From IMG/VR virus record IMGVR_UViG_3300027861_000021, positions 2,242-66,241 of that record: DNA of 64,000 nt. One strand, 5' to 3'. Both the position numbers and the translations under genes were made by a program. Below the pieces are notes generated by a model. The model had not been told where the DNA came from. It did no database searches and saw nothing but the letters and a program-made list of their open reading frames with translations. The stretch is from a virus. Taxonomy: Duplodnaviria; Caudoviricetes. Below, in pieces: positions 779 to 64,000 of this stretch (positions within the stretch are counted from its first letter, which is position 1; each line of letters starts with the position of its first letter).

Positions 779-837
779 AGATATAGACCTACACGTTCTT
801 GCTACAAAGCGTGTCTATAACCGCAAAAGGAGCGCAG

Positions 838-1044
838 ATGACAGTACTGAAACACTCACACAGCAAACAGCCTAAAAGCAGTATCTATATAACAGAATGG
901 GACGTAGAGCCACTAGATGATGTGCTGAGAGAGGACCAACTTCTACGTTTATCCGACAGAGATTGGGAATTGGTTTCGAGCACTCTTGAATCTCCACCTG
1001 AACCAAATGAAGCACTTAAGAATTTGCTGAAGACGACTAAATGA
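838..1044 (+). CDS. TacA/DUF1778 antitoxin-like C-terminal domain protein
   Basis: LRLSDRDWELVSSTLESPPEPNEAL resembles the DUF1778 C-terminus; AAAGGAG precedes ATG 838. Confidence 0.65.
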   Translation: MTVLKHSHSKQPKSSIYITEWDVEPLDDVLREDQLLRLSDRDWELVSSTLESPPEPNEALKNLLKTTK

Positions 1045-5727: not shown

Positions 5728-5751
5728 TATTAGTGGGTTGTAAAATAGTAC

Positions 5752-5780
5752 TTGACATTTGTGTTTAGATATGCTATAAT
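5752..5780 (+). promoter_or_regulatory. sigma70 promoter P2
   Basis: TTGACA-17 bp-TATAAT, extended -10. Confidence 0.85.
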
Positions 5781-5791
5781 AAAGGAGTGAC

Positions 5792-18968: not shown

Positions 18969-19001
18969 CAGACCGTTATTACTAGGTATTTGAGAAAGTA
19001 C

Positions 19002-19030
19002 TTGACAAATGACGTAGAACATGCTATAAT
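19002..19030 (+). promoter_or_regulatory. sigma70 promoter P3
   Basis: TTGACA-17 bp-TATAAT, extended -10. Confidence 0.85.
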
Positions 19031-19067
19031 ATAACTAACCCCTCATTCCGAGGGTAAGGAGAACAAA

Positions 19068-26137: not shown

Positions 26138-26170
26138 CACCAGTGACTCCACTGGGTTATAAATTAGTGC

Positions 26171-26199
26171 TTGACAAATGTAAAGAAGTATGCTATAAT
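26171..26199 (+). promoter_or_regulatory. sigma70 promoter P4
   Basis: TTGACA-17 bp-TATAAT, extended -10. Confidence 0.85.
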
Positions 26200-26233
26200 A
26201 TAGTAAAGAAACAAACGTAAGGGAGTAAGGGTT

Positions 26234-38429: not shown

Positions 38430-38616
38430 ACTCCTCCATGATACAGTATACCTTTATCATTGTATCAGCCGTACCTCCAATTGTCTCTGGGACTACAACG
38501 AATCCTTCAGCAGAAAAGAAATCTGCCATAGACTTATTCTCTGTGTGAAAGTGACCAGTATCGCATATTGTGTTTATAGCTTCTACTACTTTAGCTAAGG
38601 TTGTTTCCAATTTCAT
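38401..38616 (-). CDS. hypothetical protein
   Basis: Overlapping operon gene. Confidence 0.5.
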   Translation of the reverse strand: MKLETTLAKVVEAINTICDTGHFHTENKSMADFFSAEGFVVVPETIGGTADTMIKVYCIMEEYENDRIRTD

Positions 38617-39142
38617 ATCTGTTACCTTTCTTCATATTCTCTTCTGCGGTTAATATCTGCAAGTTACTTGGTACATGTAGCCCACTAACTAATTCACCAT
38701 GTAGAGGTATGATATGATCTACATGGTATTTGATTCCATGTAACTTCTCCAACCTAGCAGACTGTTTATATATCCAATCCATCCACTTGAAATCATCTTC
38801 AGTCATCCATATGGGGGTCTGGTTAGTTCTCCTGTACATGTACTGTGCTTTAACAGATCGGCCATTGTCTGTCTCTCTGTACTTCTTAGCCCTTGCTAAA
38901 CCTTTCTTAGATGTATTACTTTTGTGAGAGGTAGCCTTACCTTTGTCGGACTGTTTATAAGCCCTCTGAGATTCCTTAAAGGAGTCACGGGTTCTGTATT
39001 CCCTACCATATGCTGCTAAACACTTCCTGCACTTTGATTGTTTGCCGTGCTTACCTAGCTTGGCATTCTGATAATCACTTAAAGGTTTATCTATATTACA
39101 AGTCGTACATTGTTTCTTTATTGGTGTTCTTTCCAAGCACAT
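38591..39142 (-). CDS. HNH endonuclease
   Basis: CxxC..CxxC; YHVDHIIPL..GLHV..NLQILTAEEN. Confidence 0.88.
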   Translation of the reverse strand: MCLERTPIKKQCTTCNIDKPLSDYQNAKLGKHGKQSKCRKCLAAYGREYRTRDSFKESQRAYKQSDKGKATSHKSNTSKKGLARAKKYRETDNGRSVKAQYMYRRTNQTPIWMTEDDFKWMDWIYKQSARLEKLHGIKYHVDHIIPLHGELVSGLHVPSNLQILTAEENMKKGNRYEIGNNLS

Positions 39143-39374
39143 CCTTTAGTTCCTTCCTCTCTTTCTTGAGTTGTTTAATATCATCTCGTAAGTCATCCAA
39201 CCTCTTCTGATCCCAGAGGGCTGCCTCCATCCTATTTACCATTGTCTGTGTCTCCTCAATAAGAGACTTAAGATGTCGGTAGGTGGAGAAGGTGGGGGCA
39301 TCAGGGTTAAGGTGATCCCATACCTTGATTGCATCTCTCATTTCTTCCAGTGCACTACATACTAATCTACTCAT
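39096..39374 (-). CDS. hypothetical coiled-coil protein
   Basis: Lies between two HNH genes and is coupled to them. Confidence 0.55.
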   Translation of the reverse strand: MSRLVCSALEEMRDAIKVWDHLNPDAPTFSTYRHLKSLIEETQTMVNRMEAALWDQKRLDDLRDDIKQLKKERKELKDVLGKNTNKETMYDL

Positions 39375-39787
39375 CCTTGTCCACCTTTTGATAAGTTCTC
39401 TTCTGCTGAGAGAATCTGTAAGTTATTAAATTCATGTAAGCCTCCCTTACTCAAGGGCTTGATATGATCTATATGAAATCTTTCACCACAACTGGTACTC
39501 AGTACATCACTTATCCAGTACATTGCTCGGATAGCCGACACTTCCATATCACACATATCAGGAGTCTGGTCCTTCTTCTGTGCTCTATACCTAGCTGCGA
39601 TAGCATTAGACCTGCCTCGATCAACCTCTCTCCACCGCTTACCTCTAAGATAATTAGCCTCTTTAGTTGAGTCTCTGTAGGTCTTCAAACAGAGCTTACA
39701 AGAACCTTTGACCCCCCACTTACCCATTGCTTGTTTATTAAAATCACCAAGAGGTTTATCTGTTTTACATGTATTACATTGCTTCAT
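39371..39787 (-). CDS. HNH endonuclease
   Basis: CxxC..CxxC; HIDHIKPL..GGLHE..NLQILSAEEN. Confidence 0.88.
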   Translation of the reverse strand: MKQCNTCKTDKPLGDFNKQAMGKWGVKGSCKLCLKTYRDSTKEANYLRGKRWREVDRGRSNAIAARYRAQKKDQTPDMCDMEVSAIRAMYWISDVLSTSCGERFHIDHIKPLSKGGLHEFNNLQILSAEENLSKGGQG

Positions 39788-40522: not shown

Positions 40523-40571
40523 AACTTATTCCTTTAGTTGGAGATATGGGTCTAGTTAGTAGTATAAGTAT

Positions 40572-40600
40572 ATTATAGCATATCTAACCTAAATTGTCAA
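40572..40600 (-). promoter_or_regulatory. sigma70 promoter P5
   Basis: TTGACA-17 bp-TATAAT on the minus strand, extended -10. Confidence 0.85.
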
Positions 40601-40810
40601 GTACTATTTTATAACTAACTGTAATCATCCTAGTCTTTTTTATTATATATACTAACAACCATAACTCCAATTAGTTTTAATAGTTTCATACTTCCTCTTC
40701 TTCTAAGTCAAATGGTATAAATGTAGTAACACCATTAACACATATCTCATAACCATCTTTATATACCTGTACTATTTCTGCTTCTATTTCTACTGTGCTG
40801 TATAACTTCT

Positions 40811-48030: not shown

Positions 48031-48272
48031 TTCTTATCACTCCTTACGTTCTTTGGGTCAGCGACCACTGTGAATGTGTTGATACACTCGTCACATGTAC
48101 AAGTGATCTGGGATTCATCTACTAGTTCATCAAGATCATTGTCTTCAATCAGTTTACTAATGTGCCACTTAAGCATCTCAACAGCTAGTTGATTTTGCTC
48201 CAGTTCGTATTCAAGTAGTTCATAATCTGTCTGTGAGATACTTACAATCCCATCTTCCTCCAAGCCTATCAT
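48018..48272 (-). CDS. hypothetical protein
   Basis: GGAGG RBS; CTCDEC. Confidence 0.55.
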   Translation of the reverse strand: MIGLEEDGIVSISQTDYELLEYELEQNQLAVEMLKWHISKLIEDNDLDELVDESQITCTCDECINTFTVVADPKNVRSDKKWSN

Positions 48273-48727
48273 AGAATACCTCCTGCGTTACGCCACGCTT
48301 GATGAGCTTCCTCTGCCGTATCAAATGTGCCTAAGTAAATTTGTTTTCCGTTCACACCAACTCTAGCATTCCACTTACCATTAGGTGTTTGGTGTGTCCC
48401 CGGTAGATGTCCTTCTCTGTGTTCAACTCTATTGAGATTATTTACACTACGGGTAACGGTTCTCAGATTTGAGAGTCTATTGTCTGACCTGTCTCCATTA
48501 ATATGATCTATCTCTTTCCCTGTTCCTACAGGAACACAGGCTAGGTATAATGCCAGTCGGTGTGCTTGGTATTGTTTACCTTTAATCATAATCTTACGAT
48601 ATCCGTCAGGGCATAAACAACCTGCTTCGTCCCCAATATTGACTGGAGATTTCTTACTGGTCTTATACTTCCATTTAAGTATCCCTGTCTGCGGGTTGTA
48701 ACTTATATATCTTTCAGTTCCTATCAT
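48269..48727 (-). CDS. HNH homing endonuclease with an AP2-like domain
   Basis: AHRL..IDHINGDRSDNR..NLR; W.A.V..YLG.F.TAEEA. Confidence 0.9.
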   Translation of the reverse strand: MIGTERYISYNPQTGILKWKYKTSKKSPVNIGDEAGCLCPDGYRKIMIKGKQYQAHRLALYLACVPVGTGKEIDHINGDRSDNRLSNLRTVTRSVNNLNRVEHREGHLPGTHQTPNGKWNARVGVNGKQIYLGTFDTAEEAHQAWRNAGGIL

Positions 48728-50901
48728 GCTTTAAAACTCCAAAAATGTGGGTGAAATTCAGGTGTACCTGTCAGTGGAATGATACCACCTAGCTCGTTAT
48801 TAGTTAAGACCCATGCCTCATCGAATAAATCCTTGGCTTGCTCCTTCCATTCTAAAGGAACTTGCCAAACAGTCTCATCATGAAAGTCTGGTAGTACGGG
48901 TTTTATATGATACATCTTGTTCTCCTGTACTAACTGATTCAGATGGTACAAGTACTTGACTAGGATGAAGTGTCCTGTCCTCTGAATTAGTCTGTTGAGG
49001 ATGTCTTTTTCAAAGTCTTTTGTGACTGTGACTGGGGTTCCGAGTCCGTCAACGAAGAAGCCTTTGTTTGCTTTCCACTCTGCAACAAGTCTTTTTCTGT
49101 ACGTTGTAACTCCTTCAAATGTTTTCCAATATCCTTCCCATATTGTTGTAACTTCTGCAAGGCTAATTTGTATTCCTGACTCGATGAGGGTTTCGTGTAT
49201 CGTGTCCGGCCAAGCACCGTATTGTGAAGAGAGGTGTATGACTTTACAGATTGTTCTAATTCGTTTAGCGACTTTTTTAGCTCTCTTAATTCCGCTGCTC
49301 GTTGGATTTGTATTTGAGTATCCTGCATCTTCAATCTCCTGTTTAAACATTTCAATCTGTGAACCAATGAATAAATATACATCATTGGGTGGCCGGTTTG
49401 GTCCATATAAATTCATGTAACTGGGACAAGCACTTAACTCGGCCAGTACTACTGCTTCTAATGCGTCTATATCCATCTGCAAGAAAACGAAGCCTTTCTT
49501 CGGTATCAAGCAACTGAGATATCCTTCTGATTTAGGTAGCTGCTGTATGTTAACACCACCAGTACCACTACATCTATCTGTCTTGGTCCCACTCACCCTA
49601 AGTTGGCTATAATGAACTCCAGTTTCAGATCGGTCCAACATCTTAGATACATAGCCTAACTCTTTGTTGAGTGTGTTATACTCGGCCAGTAACTCACCAG
49701 CTCTACCAAGTTTAGGTAATACTGTCTTGTCTACCTTCCTGTTAGGCACCTCTAAAGATGTCTCTTGAAACTCCCAGCGTATTGTCGGACCTCCTGAGAC
49801 TATTATTTGGTTCTGCACTATTCGTCGTCCTGCCTTATTCCTTACAGGGAAGCCTGAATAACCTACCTTGAATTTATAGGTGTGCTCTGTCTCATATAGG
49901 CAGTCATAAAATAACCAAGCTAGTTGCTTCTTGCTGTTGGCATTGAAGTGTTGTGTATCCTTGACGGTCACTAGTTTTTCAGACCACTTGGAGTAACGGC
50001 TGCTAGGTTTACCCGTCTTCGTTTGCTTAGGAGGCATCCTATCATAGTGTTCTCTTACTGCCTGTGCATTGTACTCTTGTATGTGTACTGAGGCTGGGCT
50101 GTCTTCATAAAACTCAGTCATTAACTCAGCCATCCGGTCAGTTAATTTCTTAGAATGGGCTTCCAGTTTTTTTCTGTCAATCGTAATTCCCTCCCGCCTT
50201 GCCTCATCTATTAGGCGAATTAGGTTCTGAAAGTCACGAGTATGGTATACGTCCAACTCTGGGAATCTAGAGAGTATTGGGCTGAAGATATTTTGGTACA
50301 AGTCCCAAGTTGCTTGAGCATCCATGTTACAGTACTTTCCGAGCACTGAGTCAGGAGCATTGTGCATTTCTCCTTTGAGGACTTTACCTCTGTTATTAAC
50401 ATACCCGTTAAGGGTGAGCCACTCATCCAATTCGACATCACCTTTGTCCTCCCATCCTAGTAAATCTACCTGTAAATTCTTAAGTCCTTTGTTACCGGGT
50501 ACACCTGCGTAATCACCTTCGATCGAATTGAGTAGGCACATTGTATCGTATTGAATATTTGCGTACCTACCTAAAGCACTGTAGGTCATCCACTGTTCAT
50601 ATTGAGCACCGTGAGCTATTGTTGGTCTCATTGCCACCCTTCTTAGTATGATTTTCTTTACTCCGTCAGTTTTGTCATCCAAGTTTTTGAAGCTGAAGTA
50701 TACTCCTGCGGGGTATTCATCGTCAACAACACTTACACCAACAATTTTGTCCTCTAGTTCTAGGCCAGTAGCTTCATAATCAAAGGCTGCCAGTTTATTA
50801 GAGCTTGCCATCGGTAAATATTTGTTAACATCCTCTGTGGTAGGGTTCTCTAGTATAATGCCCTGTCTAGGGGCTGTCTTTACTGATTTCAATAATATCA
50901 T
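48724..50901 (-). CDS. polA: family A DNA polymerase
   Basis: Exonuclease DYE and YC..D; T.R.S..N.QQ.P; motif A D...LE, motif B K...L...YG, motif C HDE. Confidence 0.92.
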   Translation of the reverse strand: MILLKSVKTAPRQGIILENPTTEDVNKYLPMASSNKLAAFDYEATGLELEDKIVGVSVVDDEYPAGVYFSFKNLDDKTDGVKKIILRRVAMRPTIAHGAQYEQWMTYSALGRYANIQYDTMCLLNSIEGDYAGVPGNKGLKNLQVDLLGWEDKGDVELDEWLTLNGYVNNRGKVLKGEMHNAPDSVLGKYCNMDAQATWDLYQNIFSPILSRFPELDVYHTRDFQNLIRLIDEARREGITIDRKKLEAHSKKLTDRMAELMTEFYEDSPASVHIQEYNAQAVREHYDRMPPKQTKTGKPSSRYSKWSEKLVTVKDTQHFNANSKKQLAWLFYDCLYETEHTYKFKVGYSGFPVRNKAGRRIVQNQIIVSGGPTIRWEFQETSLEVPNRKVDKTVLPKLGRAGELLAEYNTLNKELGYVSKMLDRSETGVHYSQLRVSGTKTDRCSGTGGVNIQQLPKSEGYLSCLIPKKGFVFLQMDIDALEAVVLAELSACPSYMNLYGPNRPPNDVYLFIGSQIEMFKQEIEDAGYSNTNPTSSGIKRAKKVAKRIRTICKVIHLSSQYGAWPDTIHETLIESGIQISLAEVTTIWEGYWKTFEGVTTYRKRLVAEWKANKGFFVDGLGTPVTVTKDFEKDILNRLIQRTGHFILVKYLYHLNQLVQENKMYHIKPVLPDFHDETVWQVPLEWKEQAKDLFDEAWVLTNNELGGIIPLTGTPEFHPHFWSFKA

Positions 50902-51505
50902 ATCTAGCTCCCTTACTTATATTATCAAATGCGGTTAGGTATTGTAAATTTGTGTAATGATTCAACTCATACACCTCTGATTCTGTTTTTGCAGAGCTAA
51001 TAGGTATTATGTGATCTATGTGTAGGGCTAGATCAGGAGCAAGTAACTCTTTCATCTCCCAACTAACATCATAATTACGACTAAATGAATCTTTCAGATG
51101 TTGTTGCACTGTCTCGTAATCTGTTCCTAGTATGTCAGAAGTCTTACTTCCTTTCTTATATCCCTTAGTCTTAAAGCATTGCCATAATAGTGTGCGTAAG
51201 CCACACCTCAATTTGAATAAGGGGTCGGAGGCTTTTCTATTCCTACTGTACTCCCTGTTGTAGTGCCTTTTCTGTTCTTCCTTACCTTTTCTATATTCTT
51301 TAGCATAACTCCTTTCATGGTCTTTGTTCTCTATACGCCATTTATCTCTGTATATCTTTCTCTCCTCTTTGTGGGAAGAGTTATATATAGCCCTAGCTAC
51401 CTTATCACACTCTTTACATTGCGGCCTCAATCCATCTACGCTTGCAGACTTTTTACTGAAAAGTTCTATTCCTTTATTCTCTTTGCATTTGGTACAAGTC
51501 TTCAT
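50867..51505 (-). CDS. HNH endonuclease
   Basis: CxxC..CxxC; HIDHIIP..NHYTNLQ.L...N..KG. Confidence 0.85.
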   Translation of the reverse strand: MKTCTKCKENKGIELFSKKSASVDGLRPQCKECDKVARAIYNSSHKEERKIYRDKWRIENKDHERSYAKEYRKGKEEQKRHYNREYSRNRKASDPLFKLRCGLRTLLWQCFKTKGYKKGSKTSDILGTDYETVQQHLKDSFSRNYDVSWEMKELLAPDLALHIDHIIPISSAKTESEVYELNHYTNLQYLTAFDNISKGARYDIIEISKDSP

Positions 51506-52826: not shown

Positions 52827-53297
52827 TTAAAATGGTATTTCTTGTGTTTTAGTTGCTACCTTCTTACGAACCCGAGCCTTACTCTTACCTAGACCATTAC
52901 CTAAGTCTAAAGGCGTTCCCTGTCCATCTATGTAGACCTGAATGCCTAGTCCGTGCATTGCAAGACCTTTAACTAAGCAGCGTTTGGTTGCTGAGTTGAT
53001 GTCAAACACGCCCAACTTTTCGCCTCGTATTGCGTTGTTATAGTTATCCAGTACGGGTAGGACTTCAATCAGTGAGTTACCTTTGATGGTTACCTCAACC
53101 TGAACCATTGCACCAGCCTCAGTGAATGAGAATGGATTACCCTGTGGGTCATTAATTACCCTATAGCTCGCTTCTGGGTCATAGTTCTTAGCTAATGCCC
53201 AAGCTGCTGACCACTTTAGGTATGAAAGGTTCTGCTTCTGCTCCAAGTGCATTGATACATCAATCTTGCTTAAGTCTGCGAATGTTGTGTTAGTCAT
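52827..53297 (-). CDS. Sak/Rad52-like ssDNA annealing protein (DUF1071-like)
   Basis: LSYL.W..AW, V.VTI.G, LPVLD..N, RCLVK..AMHGLG..Y. Confidence 0.88.
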   Translation of the reverse strand: MTNTTFADLSKIDVSMHLEQKQNLSYLKWSAAWALAKNYDPEASYRVINDPQGNPFSFTEAGAMVQVEVTIKGNSLIEVLPVLDNYNNAIRGEKLGVFDINSATKRCLVKGLAMHGLGIQVYIDGQGTPLDLGNGLGKSKARVRKKVATKTQEIPF

Positions 53298-53802
53298 ATT
53301 TTGCCCCTTTGGCTAAGTTGTCCTCAGGAGTGAGGATTTGTAGGTTAGTGTAGTAGCAGAGTGCCACCACCTCCTCTTCAGTTGTTGCTGTTGCAATAGG
53401 TTTGATATGGTCAATGTGATGGCCACCCAGTTCTTCAATGCTACATCCATAGTTTGCTTGACAAGTTGCTTCTAAGTGGGCTTGTGCTGTCTCAAATGAG
53501 CATCCTATTATCTCAATGGTTTTGTTAGGTTTGTTCCAGTTTTTACGCTTAAAAGAATGAAGTACGGCTAGTCTTAGGTCATGTTTGAATTTGAAGAATG
53601 GGTCTGTCTTTAGTCGTTTCCTCATTGACTTACGTACTTGTACTCCCCTACATACTTTACAAGCATTATCATATCCATATTGACCACCTGTGTCTTTATT
53701 GAATCCACCAACACCTCGGATACCACCACAATAATTACACTGTAACAATTCCATATCATTCCATAAGGCATCTCTGTCTTTAGGTTTCATTCTTATTCCC
53801 AC
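53290..53802 (-). CDS. HNH endonuclease
   Basis: CxxC..CxxC; HIDHIKP..YTNLQIL...N..KG. Confidence 0.85.
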   Translation of the reverse strand: MGIRMKPKDRDALWNDMELLQCNYCGGIRGVGGFNKDTGGQYGYDNACKVCRGVQVRKSMRKRLKTDPFFKFKHDLRLAVLHSFKRKNWNKPNKTIEIIGCSFETAQAHLEATCQANYGCSIEELGGHHIDHIKPIATATTEEEVVALCYYTNLQILTPEDNLAKGAKYD

Positions 53803-53847
53803 GAACTTTATCTCCTTAATGAGTTACGGTTATTTGTTTATGTTTAT

Positions 53848-53876
53848 ATTATAGCATACCTTTATCAATTTGTCAA
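53848..53876 (-). promoter_or_regulatory. sigma70 promoter P6
   Basis: TTGACA-17 bp-TATAAT on the minus strand, extended -10. Confidence 0.85.
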
Positions 53877-53911
53877 CCCTTAATTTATAAAGGTCTAATT
53901 TAACAGAACAC

Positions 53912-54908: not shown

Positions 54909-55876
54909 TACAGTGCCTCCGCTATTGCCATACAACTAGCCACCCAAGCATCAAAGCCATTTCGTGTGTCAGCGTCCTTAAATGGATCGTAGAGCAATGT
55001 TTTGTTCTTTTTGTTAGTCTTACCCCAATGATCCACGTTACCGCTTCTAATTTGTGGTATCTCTTTGTTTCTTATGCAGTCAGAACAGTACTCATAGAAT
55101 GCCGTGATGCCACTTGCTGTGATATTGGTTACCTCACCATCTAGTAGTAAGTTATCACCTTCGTAAGTAACATCATAGAAACTCTGGAAGGGTTTAATCA
55201 TAAAGGGTTTACCTGTCTTCTCATCCCTCATCACTGCTCTGTGTTCAGGGTTAATCATGTGTTTCTCTTCGTCCTTGATTGCGTAAAATGGGAAGAAGTA
55301 ATTAACACGACTTGTGTATGCTAAGACCCACGGAATCTTAAAGAAGCTGGCGTAATGTGCTGCTTGTATTAGATGTTTTGAATCCACGTTACCTTTAAAC
55401 CAACTTGCTTTATCATGTGCTGAGTAAGGACTACAGATTAATTTTAGTTCTACTCCGAGGGTTGGAGTGAACTCAGTACTTAAGTAACCGTCCTCTCCTA
55501 TCTTATCGTAATTACCTAGTACAATATCAGGTCTTCCGGTAACAAGCTCGCCGTTAGGCAAGTTATACTTCATTGGAATCTCTTCTTCGCATTTGTACTC
55601 AGTACCGTTAAGGTCCAGTAACTGACTGAAACTGTCCTCATTGGTCAGACCTGCATCAAACATTAACTGTGTATCGTAACTGACAGGTGTCTGAACCCCT
55701 AGATACCTAAGTACTACTTGGCGAGGGTCGGCTCCAACAATAGAACCAGAAGCAGTAATACAACCACTACTACCACCACGCCATGTCCCCACTTTTGTTT
55801 TCTCTTTGGCAACTGCTGCCTCCTGCATGTTTGCAAACCCGTTTGTGAGTTTGTCATAAAATGTAAACTTATCCAT
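54908..55876 (-). CDS. PD-(D/E)XK exonuclease (Cas4/RecB-like)
   Basis: TGRPD, VELK, Q...Y. Confidence 0.72.
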   Translation of the reverse strand: MDKFTFYDKLTNGFANMQEAAVAKEKTKVGTWRGGSSGCITASGSIVGADPRQVVLRYLGVQTPVSYDTQLMFDAGLTNEDSFSQLLDLNGTEYKCEEEIPMKYNLPNGELVTGRPDIVLGNYDKIGEDGYLSTEFTPTLGVELKLICSPYSAHDKASWFKGNVDSKHLIQAAHYASFFKIPWVLAYTSRVNYFFPFYAIKDEEKHMINPEHRAVMRDEKTGKPFMIKPFQSFYDVTYEGDNLLLDGEVTNITASGITAFYEYCSDCIRNKEIPQIRSGNVDHWGKTNKKNKTLLYDPFKDADTRNGFDAWVASCMAIAEAL

Positions 55877-56225
55877 TATTATTCTCCAGTTCTTTTATAT
55901 GTATCTTGTATTCTTCTTGAATTGCTGTGTGTCTATCATCCTTACCTAAACCACGTTTCTCGTGTTCAATAAGAAACATCAGACAACATCCTGCATGTGC
56001 TAGGTGACTTAGCTTGGTCTCAGGGTCTTTGTCTTCTCCGTTCATGTGAGCCGAAAGGTGCCTCATTGCCGCACCATATAACCTACTCCAATCAAACCCT
56101 TTTCGCCAATTATGGTCTTCATATTTCTTTGCTCCAAATGTAAGAACTTCCGCTATTGCATTCAATGCATCTACACTTAGTAATTCCATTCGCACCTTAT
56201 CTGTATCATGTTTAGTTGCTGTCAT
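55869..56225 (-). CDS. dATP/dGTP diphosphohydrolase-domain protein (DUF5664-like)
   Basis: K.D..K.R..L, V..FGAKKY..NW.KG, RH, D.E..HLAHA. Confidence 0.88.
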   Translation of the reverse strand: MTATKHDTDKVRMELLSVDALNAIAEVLTFGAKKYEDHNWRKGFDWSRLYGAAMRHLSAHMNGEDKDPETKLSHLAHAGCCLMFLIEHEKRGLGKDDRHTAIQEEYKIHIKELENNNG

Positions 56226-58630: not shown

Positions 58631-58884
58631 TTCTTAAGTCCTTTCGTTATCTTCTTGTTGGCTGCATCTCTCATTTCAGCCAGTTTTCTCTTTGCTTCCT
58701 TACTAGCTGCTGTGGTATGGTCTGGACCCTCCCCACTAGCTACTACTGCTGTTGCTGCAACCTTACGTGCTGCCTCTGCGTCTTCAGGGTTATCATATCC
58801 ACAGTAAGAGAGTTGCCATTTAATGTCATACTCACCAGAACTGTCTTTAACTACTACCCACATTGCTTTTAATACGTCACCCAT
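58627..58884 (-). CDS. hypothetical protein
   Basis: Coupled ORF. Confidence 0.55.
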   Translation of the reverse strand: MGDVLKAMWVVVKDSSGEYDIKWQLSYCGYDNPEDAEAARKVAATAVVASGEGPDHTTAASKEAKRKLAEMRDAANKKITKGLKK

Positions 58885-59578
58885 TAGTCATTCTCCTTTT
58901 AACTATATTAATCCAAGCACCATAATCCTTAATTTCATCGGGACTGTAGTTATTCTTCTTACCAATCTCCTTGTAGTTTTCTACCCAATGGTTAATACTG
59001 TGGTGTTCACAACCAAGTTGGATACCTGCACTGGTTGCATACCCAATGTGTCTCCCTGCACTGAATGAAAGTATTCCAGAAGCACTGTATAAGTCAGCCT
59101 TTCTCAAGTTAGCACCACTCAAGTCAACACCACTCAAGTCAACACCATTCAAGTTAGCATCTCTTAAGTAAGCACTGTGTAAGTTAGCACCCTCCAAGTT
59201 AGCACCACTCAAGTCAGCACCTCTCAAGTCAACATCTCTCAAGTTAGCATCTCCCAAGTTAGCACCACTCAAGTCAGCATCTCTTAAGTTAGCATCTCTC
59301 AAGTTAGCATCCTCCAAGTTAGCACCACTCAAGTTAGCACCTCTCAAGTCAACATCTCTCAAGTTAGCATCCTCCAAGTTAGCACCACTCAAGTCAGCAC
59401 CTCTCAAGTAAGCATCTCTTAAGTTAGCATCTCCCAAGTCAACACCACTCAAGTCAACACCATTCAAGTTAGCACCTCTCAAGTCAACATCTCTCAAGTC
59501 AACACCTCTCAAGTAAGCACCTTCCAAGGTATCAATCTCAAGAAGTACCTCACCTGTAATCTTGTGTAGTATCTTCAT
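58877..59578 (-). CDS. pentapeptide-repeat protein, long copy
   Basis: Tandem (A/V)(N/D/Y)Lxx repeats encoded by a 15-bp array; C-terminal QLGC..W domain. Confidence 0.92.
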   Translation of the reverse strand: MKILHKITGEVLLEIDTLEGAYLRGVDLRDVDLRGANLNGVDLSGVDLGDANLRDAYLRGADLSGANLEDANLRDVDLRGANLSGANLEDANLRDANLRDADLSGANLGDANLRDVDLRGADLSGANLEGANLHSAYLRDANLNGVDLSGVDLSGANLRKADLYSASGILSFSAGRHIGYATSAGIQLGCEHHSINHWVENYKEIGKKNNYSPDEIKDYGAWINIVKRRMTNG

Positions 59579-60706: not shown

Positions 60707-61072
60707 TTACTTTACCCCTTCAAGGTGTTTGGTTAGTACTTCGATTAATTTGCGTTGATGTCTTGGTTCTAGTGTTTGACAACCAACTATTACGTTGACT
60801 CTCCGTAGTAATACTTCGTAGTCAGGTACGGCTTCCCCTTTTTTGGCTAGTACTCTGGTTGGCACCCTTCCCTCATGTATGTCGTCCCAATAACTGTGGC
60901 CTTGTGACGTGCCACCCCAAGCCATTGTCAGATTAATTATGACTCCAAACTCCCGCTCACGGGCAATTACTTCAAATGGGTCGGACCGAGACGACTTCTT
61001 TTGTTCTGTGAGGTACTCTTCAAAGCTACTGCCCAACTCTTCTAGTTTGGCTGCAAATTCAGATACTTTCAT
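60707..61072 (-). CDS. hypothetical protein
   Basis: W..T.QGH.YW and VGCQ motifs. Confidence 0.6.
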   Translation of the reverse strand: MKVSEFAAKLEELGSSFEEYLTEQKKSSRSDPFEVIAREREFGVIINLTMAWGGTSQGHSYWDDIHEGRVPTRVLAKKGEAVPDYEVLLRRVNVIVGCQTLEPRHQRKLIEVLTKHLEGVK

Positions 61073-61647
61073 GCTGTTTCTCCTTTCAAGAGAGGGCGGG
61101 ACTTAATTTCTTCCCAGATTATTGCTTGGAACTCATGCGGTCTCATGTTTACTAACTTAGCTGCGGTCTGATATGCTTCTAGTAATTCTGCTCGTTCTAG
61201 TTTACGTAAGGACTTATCAGAGTCAAACCCTGCCGCCCTTATTCCCCACCTATCAAGTGTAACTGTACCAGCAGTGTAACAGTGGTAGATGTTGTTAAAG
61301 AATGCCTTTGTCTTTACTCCGTTTAACTCGGCCAGTACTTCCTTCTCTGTATTCCATTTGTGTAGTATTCGCCAAGCCTTTGCTTTCTGTGCTCCGTATG
61401 TACTTACTCGGCAAGAGCCACCTGTTGCTATAAAGTTATGAAGGTCAATACAATTACGTTCCCATTTATTACTAGGAGATAAGGCACTTAGTATTCCTAC
61501 TACCTTTACTAGTGGTAAACCTGTATTATTACTTATTTCTTTACACATCTTTCTAGCTTTCCGATACCAGAACTTACCTTCCTTTCTTCTGGCTGTTGGT
61601 ACATCACCGTATAACCCTAGTAGTCTACTTATTAGGTAATTTCTCAT
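61069..61647 (-). CDS. DUF7178-like protein
   Basis: WY..A, SALSP..W..N, G.KT..F..NI, VT.D.W, P..QA..W. Confidence 0.7.
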   Translation of the reverse strand: MRNYLISRLLGLYGDVPTARRKEGKFWYRKARKMCKEISNNTGLPLVKVVGILSALSPSNKWERNCIDLHNFIATGGSCRVSTYGAQKAKAWRILHKWNTEKEVLAELNGVKTKAFFNNIYHCYTAGTVTLDRWGIRAAGFDSDKSLRKLERAELLEAYQTAAKLVNMRPHEFQAIIWEEIKSRPLLKGETA

Positions 61648-61832
61648 ACTAATTTCTCCAGTGTGTCAATGAATCGTTGGATGTAGTCGTAGTTTGTGTT
61701 GTAATCTTCCTCATCTTGGTCATCTCTGTGCCTATTCTTGTACTGTAATTTGTGTAGTGTCTTTAGTTGAATGTCATTCGGTAATTGTGCAATTCCTTCA
61801 ATCATCTCTGTTGTGTAACTGTCTGCTTTCAT
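61644..61832 (-). CDS. hypothetical protein
   Basis: Coupled ORF. Confidence 0.5.
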   Translation of the reverse strand: MKADSYTTEMIEGIAQLPNDIQLKTLHKLQYKNRHRDDQDEEDYNTNYDYIQRFIDTLEKLV

Positions 61833-62074
61833 ACTACCGCCTTTCCTGACTTGTATTGGTTCATTGTTTTATCTGATTCCGGCCAATTACCTTGTAACTG
61901 TCCACAATGTCTACATGCTATGAATGATACGTAGTCATCACTCCCGCCTATCCACTCTTTTACGTATCCTACGTATTCCTTACCTGAGTTAAGGTTAAAT
62001 TGTATGAACCGATCACTACACTTGGCAGTGACTTTCACCATCTTTACCTTACCGTTGCATCTTTGACAATTCAT
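61829..62074 (-). CDS. zinc-binding hypothetical protein
   Basis: CQRC..KCSD..CRHCGQ.QG.WP. Confidence 0.65.
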   Translation of the reverse strand: MNCQRCNGKVKMVKVTAKCSDRFIQFNLNSGKEYVGYVKEWIGGSDDYVSFIACRHCGQLQGNWPESDKTMNQYKSGKAVV

Positions 62075-62364
62075 GCTTGTCTCCCTTCGAGAAGTTCTCT
62101 AAATGATTCGGTTAATGCGTCTTCACATGCTGTTATAAACTTTGGGTGTGCTAGGTCTGTAACTGGCTGTGATACTAATTTAAGAATATGTAAGTCAACC
62201 TCCATACCACATTCAAGGTCGCAGTAGCCACGTTTCTCGCCTCTGTTACCATCAGCGTCCTCTCCATAGTTCTCAATTCCGTAACTAAACTCTCCATTTA
62301 TAGTTACATCCCAATCAATGTCAGCAAATGAAATTGTTGTATCTAGTGTGTGTTGTTCGGTCAT
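62071..62364 (-). CDS. acidic hypothetical protein
   Basis: YG.DADGNRG motif; AGGAG RBS. Confidence 0.65.
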   Translation of the reverse strand: MTEQHTLDTTISFADIDWDVTINGEFSYGIENYGEDADGNRGEKRGYCDLECGMEVDLHILKLVSQPVTDLAHPKFITACEDALTESFRELLEGRQA

Positions 62365-62580
62365 TATTTTCTCCTATCCAGTATTATCTCGATTAGTATT
62401 AGTCCTACCAGTGTAGTAATTACAAAGTAGAACAATGTATATACAACACTCATCCTTCATGCTCCTTCTTTATTGTGATTGAAGACCTGTGAAAATTACT
62501 TCCGATTACCACTGACATAAAATACATTAGCCAAGAGAACTCCCAAAAGCTGAGAGTCTTCATCCATTCATACCATTCTG

Positions 62581-62898
62581 TCATACCAGTTCACCTACTC
62601 CCTTAGATGTTATAAATACTGCCTCTTGATCTAGTTCTCGCTTGATAAAGTCGGCTAGTACCAATAGTTTAACTCTCATTGTTGCTGTTTTAGCGTATAC
62701 TTCTACCACCGTTACAGGCTCGGTTGCCACGGTCCCTGTTGCCATCTCGTATGTTCCTGTTGCAGTGTACATTGTAGTACCTCCAGCTTCCTTTGTGAGT
62801 GCTTCAACTACATGGTTTAGGACCTGTGCTCGTAGTTCTTTAAATATCGGTGTACCGTTGCGTTTAAGGCTCGGTACGGTTATTGTGTATCGTTTCAA
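62581..62898 (-). CDS. DUF3574/PII-like fold small protein
   Basis: GG.T..A.G.Y..E..K..L.QEAV. Confidence 0.6.
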   Translation of the reverse strand: MKRYTITVPSLKRNGTPIFKELRAQVLNHVVEALTKEAGGTTMYTATGTYEMATGTVATEPVTVVEVYAKTATMRVKLLVLADFIKRELDQEAVFITSKGVGELV

Positions 62899-63023
62899 AG
62901 TTTACTCCAGTACGAGTATCCCCAAGGGTATTCGTGGAAATGTCTAGTTATTGTAACTGTATATCCAGTAACCGTTTTTACTACGGACCCTGCTTTTAAT
63001 CTAGTCTTACTAGTTACCCACAT

Positions 63024-63224
63024 TCAAAACACCTTTCCGTTAATTTCCATAAACTCGGCGAGTACCTCTGTATCAGAAGCATCCCACCCAAGAGAGGCTG
63101 CTTCACTAGCTACCTGCTCGGATGTCATGTCCTCTAATTGGATTTCAGCGTGATACAAAGCCGCAGGACTCGCTCCCATTGCTTTGTATTGCGCTAGTAT
63201 GTATTTAATTTGTAAGCCTCTCAT
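63024..63224 (-). CDS. hypothetical protein
   Basis: ATGA coupling. Confidence 0.5.
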   Translation of the reverse strand: MRGLQIKYILAQYKAMGASPAALYHAEIQLEDMTSEQVASEAASLGWDASDTEVLAEFMEINGKVF

Positions 63225-63310
63225 ATCTCACCTACCTTCTTTGTTGTGTAGTAGTTGTATTTCTTCATATACTTTAGTAACTTCTTTTCTGACATCATAC
63301 CGTCACCCAT
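63221..63310 (-). CDS. 29-aa mini-ORF duplicating the C-terminus of 63761..63988
   Basis: [29 protein letters not shown]; coupled at both ends. Confidence 0.5.
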
Positions 63311-63847
63311 TAGTCATTCTCCTTTTAACTATATTAATCCAAGCACCATAATCCTTAATTTCATCGGGACTGTATCTATTCTTCTTACCAATCTCCTTGT
63401 AGTTTTCTACCCAATGGTTAATACTGTGCCATTCACAACCAAGTTGGATACCTGCACTGGTTGCATACCCAGTGTGTCTCCCTGCACTGAATGAAAGTAT
63501 TCCAGAAGCACCACTCAAGTCAACACCACTCAAGTCAGCACCTCTCAAGTAAGCATCTCTTAAGTTAGCACCGTGTAAGTTAGCACCACTCAAGTCAGCA
63601 CCACTCAAATCAACATCTCTCAAGTTAACATCTCCCAAGTTAACACCACTCAAATCAACATCTCCCAAATTAGCACCTCTCAAGTAAACACCCCCCAAGT
63701 AAGCACCTCTCAAGATATCAATCTCAAGAAGTACCTCACCTGTAATCTTATGTAATATCTTCATACTTCACCTACCTTCTTTGTTATGTAATAGTTATAT
63801 TTCTTCATATACTTTAATAACTTCTTTTCTGACATCATACCATCACC
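63228..63847. repeat. 80-bp direct repeats (63228-63307 and 63768-63847) flanking the short pentapeptide gene
   Basis: 540-bp offset; 5 mismatches, all G versus A. Confidence 0.95.
63303..63764 (-). CDS. pentapeptide-repeat protein, short copy
   Basis: Near-identical N- and C-termini to 58877..59578; 16 fewer repeats. Confidence 0.92.
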
Positions 63848-63988
63848 AACTATCATGTAACTGGTAGTATTCATAAGACCATAATAACAATCCCAAGAAA
63901 CCACCGTTAGGCTATAGGTGAAGCCATAGAACTTGTTCTCCCTAAACACCTCCTGTCCGTGTGTTACCTTAGTTGTTAATGTTGCCAT
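63761..63988 (-). CDS. hypothetical protein
   Basis: GAGG RBS; ATGA overlap. Confidence 0.55.
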
Positions 63989-64000
63989 TGTCTAAACCTC

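Follow-up and report, generated by a model that had tools for sequence, protein, structure and literature searches.

Two natural versions of a 282-base stretch in an uncultivated marine phage differ solely by C-to-T changes on one strand

Introduction

How can two versions of one short phage locus come to differ at many positions, with every change of one type and on one strand? This question is raised by two adjoining minus-strand genes of an uncultivated marine podophage: PRP-2, which encodes a pentapeptide-repeat protein (PRP), and ORF75, a small open reading frame (ORF). Both lie close to the end of the 64,000-nucleotide stretch of DNA that was analysed, hereafter the window, which comprises positions 2242-66241 (G000:C1:2242-66241) of a 66,241-base virus record (IMGVR_UViG_3300027861_000021; Caudoviricetes) classed as linear with an estimated completeness of 100%. 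From the letters of the window alone, an earlier sequence-only reading had noted that bases in this region differ from their paralogous copies almost only as G-to-A on the plus strand, which is C-to-T on the coding strand. It had explained this by a single clustered cytosine deamination event on exposed single-stranded DNA (ssDNA), either the scar of a host deaminase or a diversifying process. Our analysis confirms the observation itself and supports the interpretation in part.

Results

The two ends of the virus record carry two versions of the same locus

The first 417 bases of the record (G000:C1:1-417), which precede the window, represent the same locus as positions 63584-64000 of the window. 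The two copies align without gaps and are identical at 400 of 417 bases (95.9%), and both contig ends include all of ORF75 together with a portion of PRP-2 that takes in its start. This end overlap indicates a circular or terminally redundant genome map that closes at about 65,824 bases, and it was probably overlooked in the linear classification because the two contig ends carry different alleles. The presence of both alleles within one contig is an assembly effect, in which the assembler passed round the genome once and finished on the other branch of a bubble.

At each of the 17 sites where the copies differ, the plus strand has G in the contig-start copy and A in the window copy, that is, C>T on the coding strand. 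These sites lie at positions 63609, 63628, 63643, 63654, 63658, 63669, 63688, 63715, 63750, 63755, 63786, 63791, 63797, 63817, 63881, 63889 and 63890 of the window. The changes are thus confined to 282 bases (63609-63890), and the remaining 135 bases of the overlap, 25 on one side (63584-63608) and 110 on the other (63891-64000), are the same in both copies. What we observe, therefore, is two natural versions of a 282-base stretch in this phage, a G version and an A version, which differ solely by one-strand C>T changes.

The one-strand spectrum is extreme by any count. Within 63609-63890 the changes affect 17 of 37 G positions and none of the 76 C, 80 A and 89 T positions of the plus strand; expressed by strand, 17/37 minus-strand cytosines are changed against 0/76 plus-strand cytosines (Fisher p=2.5e-10), and the chance that 17 transitions would all be of one type is at most 2e-10. 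With 17 changes in 282 bases the clustering is well above the local background: positions 61000-63257 show no differences from the metagenome contigs listed for two of the runs described below (X1 and X3). Four other pairs of paralogues or repeats in the window, used as controls, have mixed spectra in which G>A accounts for 3/17, 4/18, 0/4 and 2/14 of the differences. As a consequence of the changes, the plus strand of the A version has a G fraction of 0.071 in the tract, the lowest of all 282-base windows across the minus-strand gene block (0.174 +/- 0.029), which bears out the earlier remark that this strand is G-poor; the G version, at 0.131, is unremarkable in the same block. Beyond this, the GC skew profile tracks the coding strand and nothing more.

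The allelic copy also allows the changes to be counted more exactly than was possible from paralogues. The three codon changes that the sequence-only reading had named in the N-terminus of PRP-2 (CTA>TTA, CAC>CAT and ACC>ATC) are those at 63755, 63750 and 63715. It had counted about six changes in the repeat units, of which there are seven, and five G>A mismatches in an 80-base repeat, of which four are allele-specific, while the fifth (63842) is A in both alleles and so lies outside the allelic tract. The full repeat is 92 bases long and has nine mismatches, five of them G>A and the other four at the repeat edges. In the A allele, PRP-2 carries T17I, A26V, A36V, A41V and A46V together with five synonymous changes, and ORF75 carries T68I and R34C together with another five. 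Ten changes are thus synonymous and seven are not, a balance that speaks for mutation over selection as the source of the pattern.

The A version is the derived state at all testable sites

Two paralogous outgroups within the window bear on the direction of change. The downstream copy of the 92-base repeat (copy A) agrees with the G version at 4/4 variable sites, and PRP-1, a longer paralogue of PRP-2, agrees with it at 3/3 variable sites of the unique PRP N-terminus. Since these outgroups carry G at all seven testable sites, the A state appears to be derived at 7/7, with C on the coding strand as the ancestral base and not the ancestral T that would have told against the sequence-only reading. 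At the seven sites within repeat units, the A version creates codons (GAT, GTT and AAT at those unit positions) that are absent from PRP-1. More distant sequences added nothing to this comparison. Searches of phage DNA gave distant pentapeptide matches or nothing, and a pattern scan of viral contigs gave nothing. Two pattern scans of metagenome contigs were also empty, but they carry no weight on occurrence because records close to the window may be hidden in that collection. A search of 5.8 billion proteins found homologues of ORF75 only within its own 90% cluster, and a protein scan of viral contigs gave none.

The tract consists of two patches that segregate independently

The 17 changes fall into two patches separated by a gap (Table 1). 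Patch 1 starts in the pentapeptide-repeat array of PRP-2, crosses the N-terminus and start codon of that gene and enters the 3' end of ORF75. The left border of the patch is also visible in the proteins, as residues 47-153 of PRP-2 are identical between the A-form and the G-form, so that the 3' half of the gene is unaffected at the protein level, as had been claimed. In the gap none of six minus-strand cytosines is changed, which at the patch rate has a probability of 0.008-0.016. Patch 2 affects three codons of ORF75, TAC>TAT, CGT>TGT (R34C) and GAC>GAT. All four combinations of patch 1 and patch 2 states are present in public assemblies and metagenome runs. Because the two patches segregate independently, the single event of the sequence-only reading is doubtful; either the strand was changed twice with like polarity, or it was changed once and recombination inside a span of about 64 bases later separated the patches.

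Both versions are heritable alleles in wild populations

The last 10 kb of the window is contained in 20 seawater or marine metagenome runs (2016-2020), and in 13 of these half or more of the sampled words are present. We aligned k-mer contigs (k=31) of four runs from different studies (X1, X2, X3 and X5) to positions 61000-64000. For 63579-63745, X1 and X2 each contain a 167-base contig that matches the A version exactly (depth 13.1 and 22.2, respectively), and for 63720-63847 X1 contains an exact 128-base match (depth 12.6). Each of these contigs extends exactly 30 bases past the first and last variable sites of its chain, which is what a bubble branch gives at k=31. They phase eight sites (63609-63715) on the longer contig and six (63750-63817) on the shorter one. 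The G version is present as well, in an X2 contig with five differences (depth 15.2) and an X3 contig with six (depth 10.1); at 63669 in X3, G alone is recorded among the contigs listed. For X1 no G alternative is listed at 63609-63658, which is no sign that it is missing there. At the three distal sites (63881, 63889 and 63890), which lie on a 13-kb main contig starting at about 63818, the base is G in X1 and X5, and A in X2 (depth 34) and X3 (depth 19).

Public assemblies tell the same story at the protein level. An exact-sequence look-up found the ORF75 forms C34/I68 on five contigs, R34/T68 on five, R34/I68 on four, C34/T68 on one, and R34/T68 with V75I on one. For PRP-2, the all-derived form (I17, V26, V36, V41, V46) occurs on 11+1 contigs and the all-ancestral form on 2+1, and no intermediates at the five sites occur on these 15 contigs; the five PRP-2 sites are thus all-or-none. 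Patch 2, judged by the ORF75 forms and the runs, is unlinked to patch 1. A-form proteins, whose sources include JGI/IMG, ENA and MetaClust assemblies, are accordingly found on five (ORF75) and 12 (PRP-2) public contigs, where the edited version is seen more often than the unedited one. Because exact A-version contigs occur in several runs and A-form proteins on public contigs, the tract is a heritable allele in wild populations and not a damaged read.

The changed cytosines show no preferred context or structure

No sequence-context preference distinguishes the 17 changed from the 20 unchanged minus-strand cytosines of the tract. By the preceding base, the changed fraction is 12/25 after A, 4/6 after G, 1/3 after C and 0/3 after T. 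The earlier statement that all changes follow a purine is nearly right as a count (16/17), but it reflects a base-rate effect, as 15/20 unchanged cytosines do so too (p=0.19). Likewise, WRC contexts hold 11/17 changed and 15/20 unchanged cytosines (p=0.72), and dipyrimidine contexts, counted by hand, 13/17 and 15/20 (p=1). Ultraviolet (UV) light as the agent was ruled out, with 4/17 changed sites outside dipyrimidines, no enrichment within them and no change among the 76 plus-strand cytosines.

Organisation of the locus and gene content of the phage

The coordinates of all features are collected in Table 1. PRP-2 is bracketed by the 92-base direct repeat, whose downstream copy is an out-of-frame remnant, and the homology between PRP-1 and PRP-2 stops exactly at a common GGTGAY (ATGGGTGAC) at the repeat junction. 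From this arrangement the pentapeptide gene looks like a cassette-like duplication or insertion via short-homology recombination. In runs X1-X3, the sole contig listed over the C-terminal domain of PRP-2 has six PRP-1-like letters between 63375 and 63472, at about twice the phage depth, and one public protein form (P0007) joins the derived N-terminus to a PRP-1-like C-terminus; gene conversion between PRP-1 and PRP-2 is ongoing and polymorphic in the population. Contig stretches over 63511-63600 with eight differences and two gaps are probably paralogous or represent another repeat arrangement. A promoter scan upstream of ORF75 gave three sites where 3.7 are expected and is unusable for an argument about transcription starts. 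Elsewhere in the early region, X5 contigs (depth 7) join 61829 to 62071, omitting an 81-amino-acid ORF, and an X2 contig (depth 8.4, short side 22) joins 61067 to 62070. The junctions 61829-62074 and 61067-62070 are possible gene-content variants, for which contigs with such short sides are weak evidence.

Table 1. Features of the window discussed in the text (positions are those of the window).
Feature	Position	Strand	Description
PRP-2	63303..63764	-	153 amino acids; pentapeptide-repeat protein, PF00805, E 2e-23
ORF75	63761..63988	-	75 amino acids; without known family
66-amino-acid ORF	63024..63224	-	same block of small minus-strand genes
PRP-1	58877..59578	-	233 amino acids; longer PRP-2 paralogue; outgroup for 3 N-terminal tract sites
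92-base direct repeat, copy A	63221..63312	.	duplicate of the ORF75 3' end, downstream of PRP-2; outgroup for 4 sites
92-base direct repeat, second copy	63761..63852		last 92 bases of ORF75
Patch 1	63609..63817	-	14 C>T of 28 minus-strand cytosines; derived allele
Gap between patches	63818..63880	-	0/6 minus-strand cytosines changed
Patch 2	63881..63890	-	3/3 cytosines changed, in ORF75; segregates independently of patch 1
Re-represented locus	63584..64000	.	assembly overlap of circular or terminally redundant genome, alternative allele; 400/417 identical
MazZ-like dATP/dGTP diphosphohydrolase N-terminal domain	55872-56225	-	PF18909, E 2e-35
Endonuclease VII-like paralogues (four)	38594-39142, 39374-39787, 50870-51505, 53293-53802	-	scattered in replication module
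HNH endonuclease	48272-48727	-	replication module
Promoter-like repeats TTGACA-N17-TATAAT	732-782, 5734-5784, 18984-19034, 26153-26203	+	near-consensus, conserved flanks
Promoter-like repeats TTGACA-N17-TATAAT	40569-40614, 53845-53890	-	same family
Small ORF with TacA-like antitoxin domain	799-1041	+	PF08681, E 4e-7; near divergence point of two gene blocks

About 96 ORFs were called in this podophage, among which a T4-type large terminase, a P22/SU10-like portal and an SU10-like adaptor are annotated. Its replication and recombination genes include a family A DNA polymerase, a helicase, a Sak single-strand annealing protein and a Holliday junction resolvase. The four endonuclease VII-like genes and the HNH gene suggest homing-type mobile nuclease genes, some of which have a conserved 53-base repeat at or close to them (repeat positions 38613, 44016, 50898). 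The MazZ-like domain could alter purine nucleotide pools; a PurZ-like adenylosuccinate synthetase was not detected beside it in the genome. The promoter-like repeats sit on the strand of the genes they precede. No close DNA match to known phages was found, and the pentapeptide matches that were obtained are repeat-driven and uninformative on the host.

Discussion

The conversion of about half of one strand's cytosines over 200-300 bases, with none on the opposite strand and only to T, is the signature of ssDNA cytosine deamination. Agents that act on double-stranded DNA, such as UV or DddA-like enzymes, are expected to affect both strands, and polymerase errors and base analogues yield mixed transitions. 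Spontaneous deamination is far too slow to give a tract this dense, which calls for an enzyme or else a strong chemical. The footprint itself is robust, and its spectrum, strand restriction and clustering are as expected of the clustered deamination of an exposed strand that the sequence-only reading had proposed. The density of the changes (14/28 and 3/3), together with the lack of any context preference, points to a context-independent ssDNA deaminase. We therefore favour, with more confidence than doubt though well short of certainty, a context-independent and probably enzymatic deamination of the single-stranded minus strand at this early-gene locus, the derived allele persisting beside the unedited one. 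What we infer is that the chemistry was deamination and the agent an enzyme, and also how the strand came to be exposed.

By this mechanism, about half of the minus-strand cytosines would have been converted to uracil, which is read as T, in two neighbouring patches while the strand was single, and none on the plus strand; replication would then have fixed the changes, and the allele would have spread beside the unedited one. Neither a deaminase nor a reverse transcriptase was found in the phage, as the sequence-only reading had also noted, among 101 ORFs compared with Pfam or 61 compared with PHROGs, where many ORFs are without family and absence is unproven. Since no deaminase is detectable in the phage, one that acts on ssDNA cytosines whatever their context would have come from the host or a competing bacterium. 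The exposed strand would be the non-template strand of the ORF75 and PRP-2 genes. It is also the one that would remain single if a break in the PRP-2 repeat array were resected 5'-3' on its right side. A recombination intermediate is plausible because the phage has a Sak annealing protein and nucleases, and because the C-terminus of PRP-2 shows the PRP-1-like conversion polymorphism.

Several points weigh against this explanation. There is no motif that links the tract to a known enzyme, no deaminase was detected in the phage by the comparisons just given, and the predicted unpaired probability of the minus strand as ssDNA is about the same for changed (0.26) and unchanged (0.29) cytosines (p=0.59). 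Uracil in ssDNA is normally excised, so that C>T changes alone would result only if the uracils were copied directly or uracil glycosylase was absent or inhibited. Nine neighbouring early genes (of ten queried, the tenth being absent from the collection), with 16 variant protein forms, show mixed substitutions and no multi-site allele of the A>V, T>I or R>C type, in a comparison made at the protein level and sensitive to non-synonymous changes alone. The phenomenon is known from one locus in one phage, whose portal has a best isolate or record match of only 24% identity, to an uncultured record. The three sites of patch 2 are without polarity because ORF75 has no outgroup. Finally, the read-level evidence consists of k-mer contigs, which phase just those sites that are less than 31 bases apart, and the runs may stem from one sampling campaign.

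The main rival is an imbalance of the nucleotide pool during short-patch synthesis, which we regard as unlikely, though it deserves more weight than any of the others. Depletion of deoxycytidine triphosphate (dCTP), for example by a host dCTP-deaminase defence, would place T opposite G in minus-strand synthesis, while depletion of deoxyguanosine triphosphate (dGTP), for example by a phage MazZ-like enzyme, would place A opposite C in plus-strand synthesis. In sequence alone either form leaves the same one-strand signature as deamination; dCTP imbalance causes G>A hypermutation in retroviruses, dCTP-deaminase defences exist, this phage encodes the dATP/dGTP diphosphohydrolase domain (PF18909), and the lack of context preference fits misincorporation. 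A pool effect should, however, be felt across the whole genome, and neither the stretch 61000-63257, which does not vary in X1 and X3, nor the nine neighbouring genes show alleles of this kind. It would also require repeated mismatch extension by a family A polymerase to give 14/28 within 209 bases, and the sharp edges and the unchanged gap are hard to account for.

Chemistry without an enzyme would act on a stretch of ssDNA through sulfite, nitrite or long exposure, with replication afterwards, and would leave the same context-free C>T signature on one strand. Sulfite damage to yeast ssDNA is reported to give strand-coordinated clusters (PMC3521656). To convert half of the cytosines of a patch, however, the exposure would have to be harsh or very long for a molecule that was still infectious, and the phage genome in the virion is double-stranded; we judge this explanation less probable again than pool imbalance.

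The alternative offered by the sequence-only reading, a diversifying process, would amount to a programmed, locus-directed system that edits PRP-2 in its N-terminal half, working like diversity-generating retroelements (DGRs) but through a deaminase. The location of the tract is suggestive, as it covers the N-terminal repeats of a repeat protein and alters five residues there, and its two patches share strand polarity. Moreover, both alleles are at appreciable frequency, unlike the nine neighbours, in which one dominant form on 12-25 contigs stands against forms on 1-3. DGRs resemble the tract in that a phage gene is locally hypermutated and the mutated copy stands beside an unmutated related copy. 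They need a reverse transcriptase and a template repeat, however, and randomise adenine positions. In this phage no reverse transcriptase, deaminase or template repeat was found, the differences are at G/C alone and consist of C>T only, which does not randomise, and they spill into the neighbouring gene, which holds 7 of the 17. On the 15 contigs PRP-2 has two forms and no intermediates, and 10/17 changes are synonymous. Programmed diversification therefore appears improbable.

An artefact of damaged templates, of a sequencing error mode or of chimeric assembly would be a natural suspicion for a tract at the extreme end of a contig, where support is often thin, and all the more so as the duplicate representation of the locus is an assembly effect. 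The sequence-only reading would have been overturned had the tract come from one or two damaged reads. Instead, exact A-version contigs have depths of 13-22 in runs of different studies (X1 and X2), the three distal sites are listed as A alone in X2 and X3 and do not carry A in X1 or X5, depths being 13-34 overall, and A-form proteins come from several sources of assemblies; an artefact is very improbable. That the tract arose by ordinary divergence, or was acquired from a paralogue or diverged relative by recombination, is hardly credible even though PRP genes recombine in the population, because the control paralogue pairs are mixed where the tract is 17/17 of a single type, the A-type codons (GAT and GTT in those units) are missing from PRP-1, and no relative was found in any collection searched.

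It is of interest to compare the tract with systems in which similar patterns are understood. Strand-coordinated C>T clusters are an accepted footprint of ssDNA deaminases in eukaryotic viruses and cancer genomes, and the clusters of APOBEC hypermutation and kataegis are attributed to deamination of transient ssDNA at resection, R-loops or replication. Like our tract, APOBEC3/AID hypermutation and kataegis show dense, strand-coordinated C>T changes over a few hundred bases. Unlike it, they carry a preference for TC, CC or WRC, whereas the tract has none (TC 0/3, CC 1/3, WRC 11/17), and the tract allele is viable and common, not a dead genome. The tract, moreover, belongs to a phage of a marine bacterial host, where APOBEC-family enzymes are not known. 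For APOBEC, a preference for TCA/TCT has been reported (PMC10715669).

Repeat-induced point mutation (RIP) of fungi also gives C>T tracts in duplicated DNA, and part of our tract lies in duplicated sequence, namely the PRP N-terminus and the 92-base repeat. RIP often has one strand polarity, mutates both copies and is confined to the duplication. In contrast, PRP-1 and repeat copy A are untouched in this phage, the nearly identical duplication of the PRP C-terminus is spared, and patch 2 lies in unique sequence.

Bacterial deaminase toxins come closer. Such toxins are reported to deaminate DNA cytosines and to leave C>T mutations in survivors (PMC7901873), and one of them, SsdA, is reported to act on ssDNA without strong context dependence (PMC12494967). 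The context-free action of SsdA (BaDTF2) on ssDNA matches the one-strand C>T pattern of the tract, a likeness in outcome only. A DddA-like enzyme (BaDTF1) is unlikely because DddA prefers 5'-TC and acts on double-stranded DNA, where changes on both strands would be expected, and the tract has TC 0/3 and a plus strand at 0/76. The parts of the literature covered by our search gave no report of deaminase-toxin action on phage DNA in nature, nor, in the titles and abstract openings to which it was confined, of strand-coordinated clusters of C>T changes in phage populations in nature.

These comparisons lead us to a further and more tentative proposal, namely that marine bacteria, or toxins injected by their competitors, edit replicating phage DNA by a context-independent ssDNA deaminase, and that the tract is the scar of a survivor. 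If true, this would be a prokaryotic counterpart of APOBEC restriction and the first natural example in a phage population, and the attack would have given a pentapeptide-repeat early gene a new and successful allele. The tract offers a search image for metagenomes, that is, alleles that differ by a single transition type on one strand, and it carries the warning that imperfect end overlaps of viral contigs classed as linear can conceal such alleles. At this locus seven residues were altered across two early proteins. If an enzyme made the tract, DNA editing would be a part of the conflict between marine phages and bacteria, and a source of sudden multi-site alleles.

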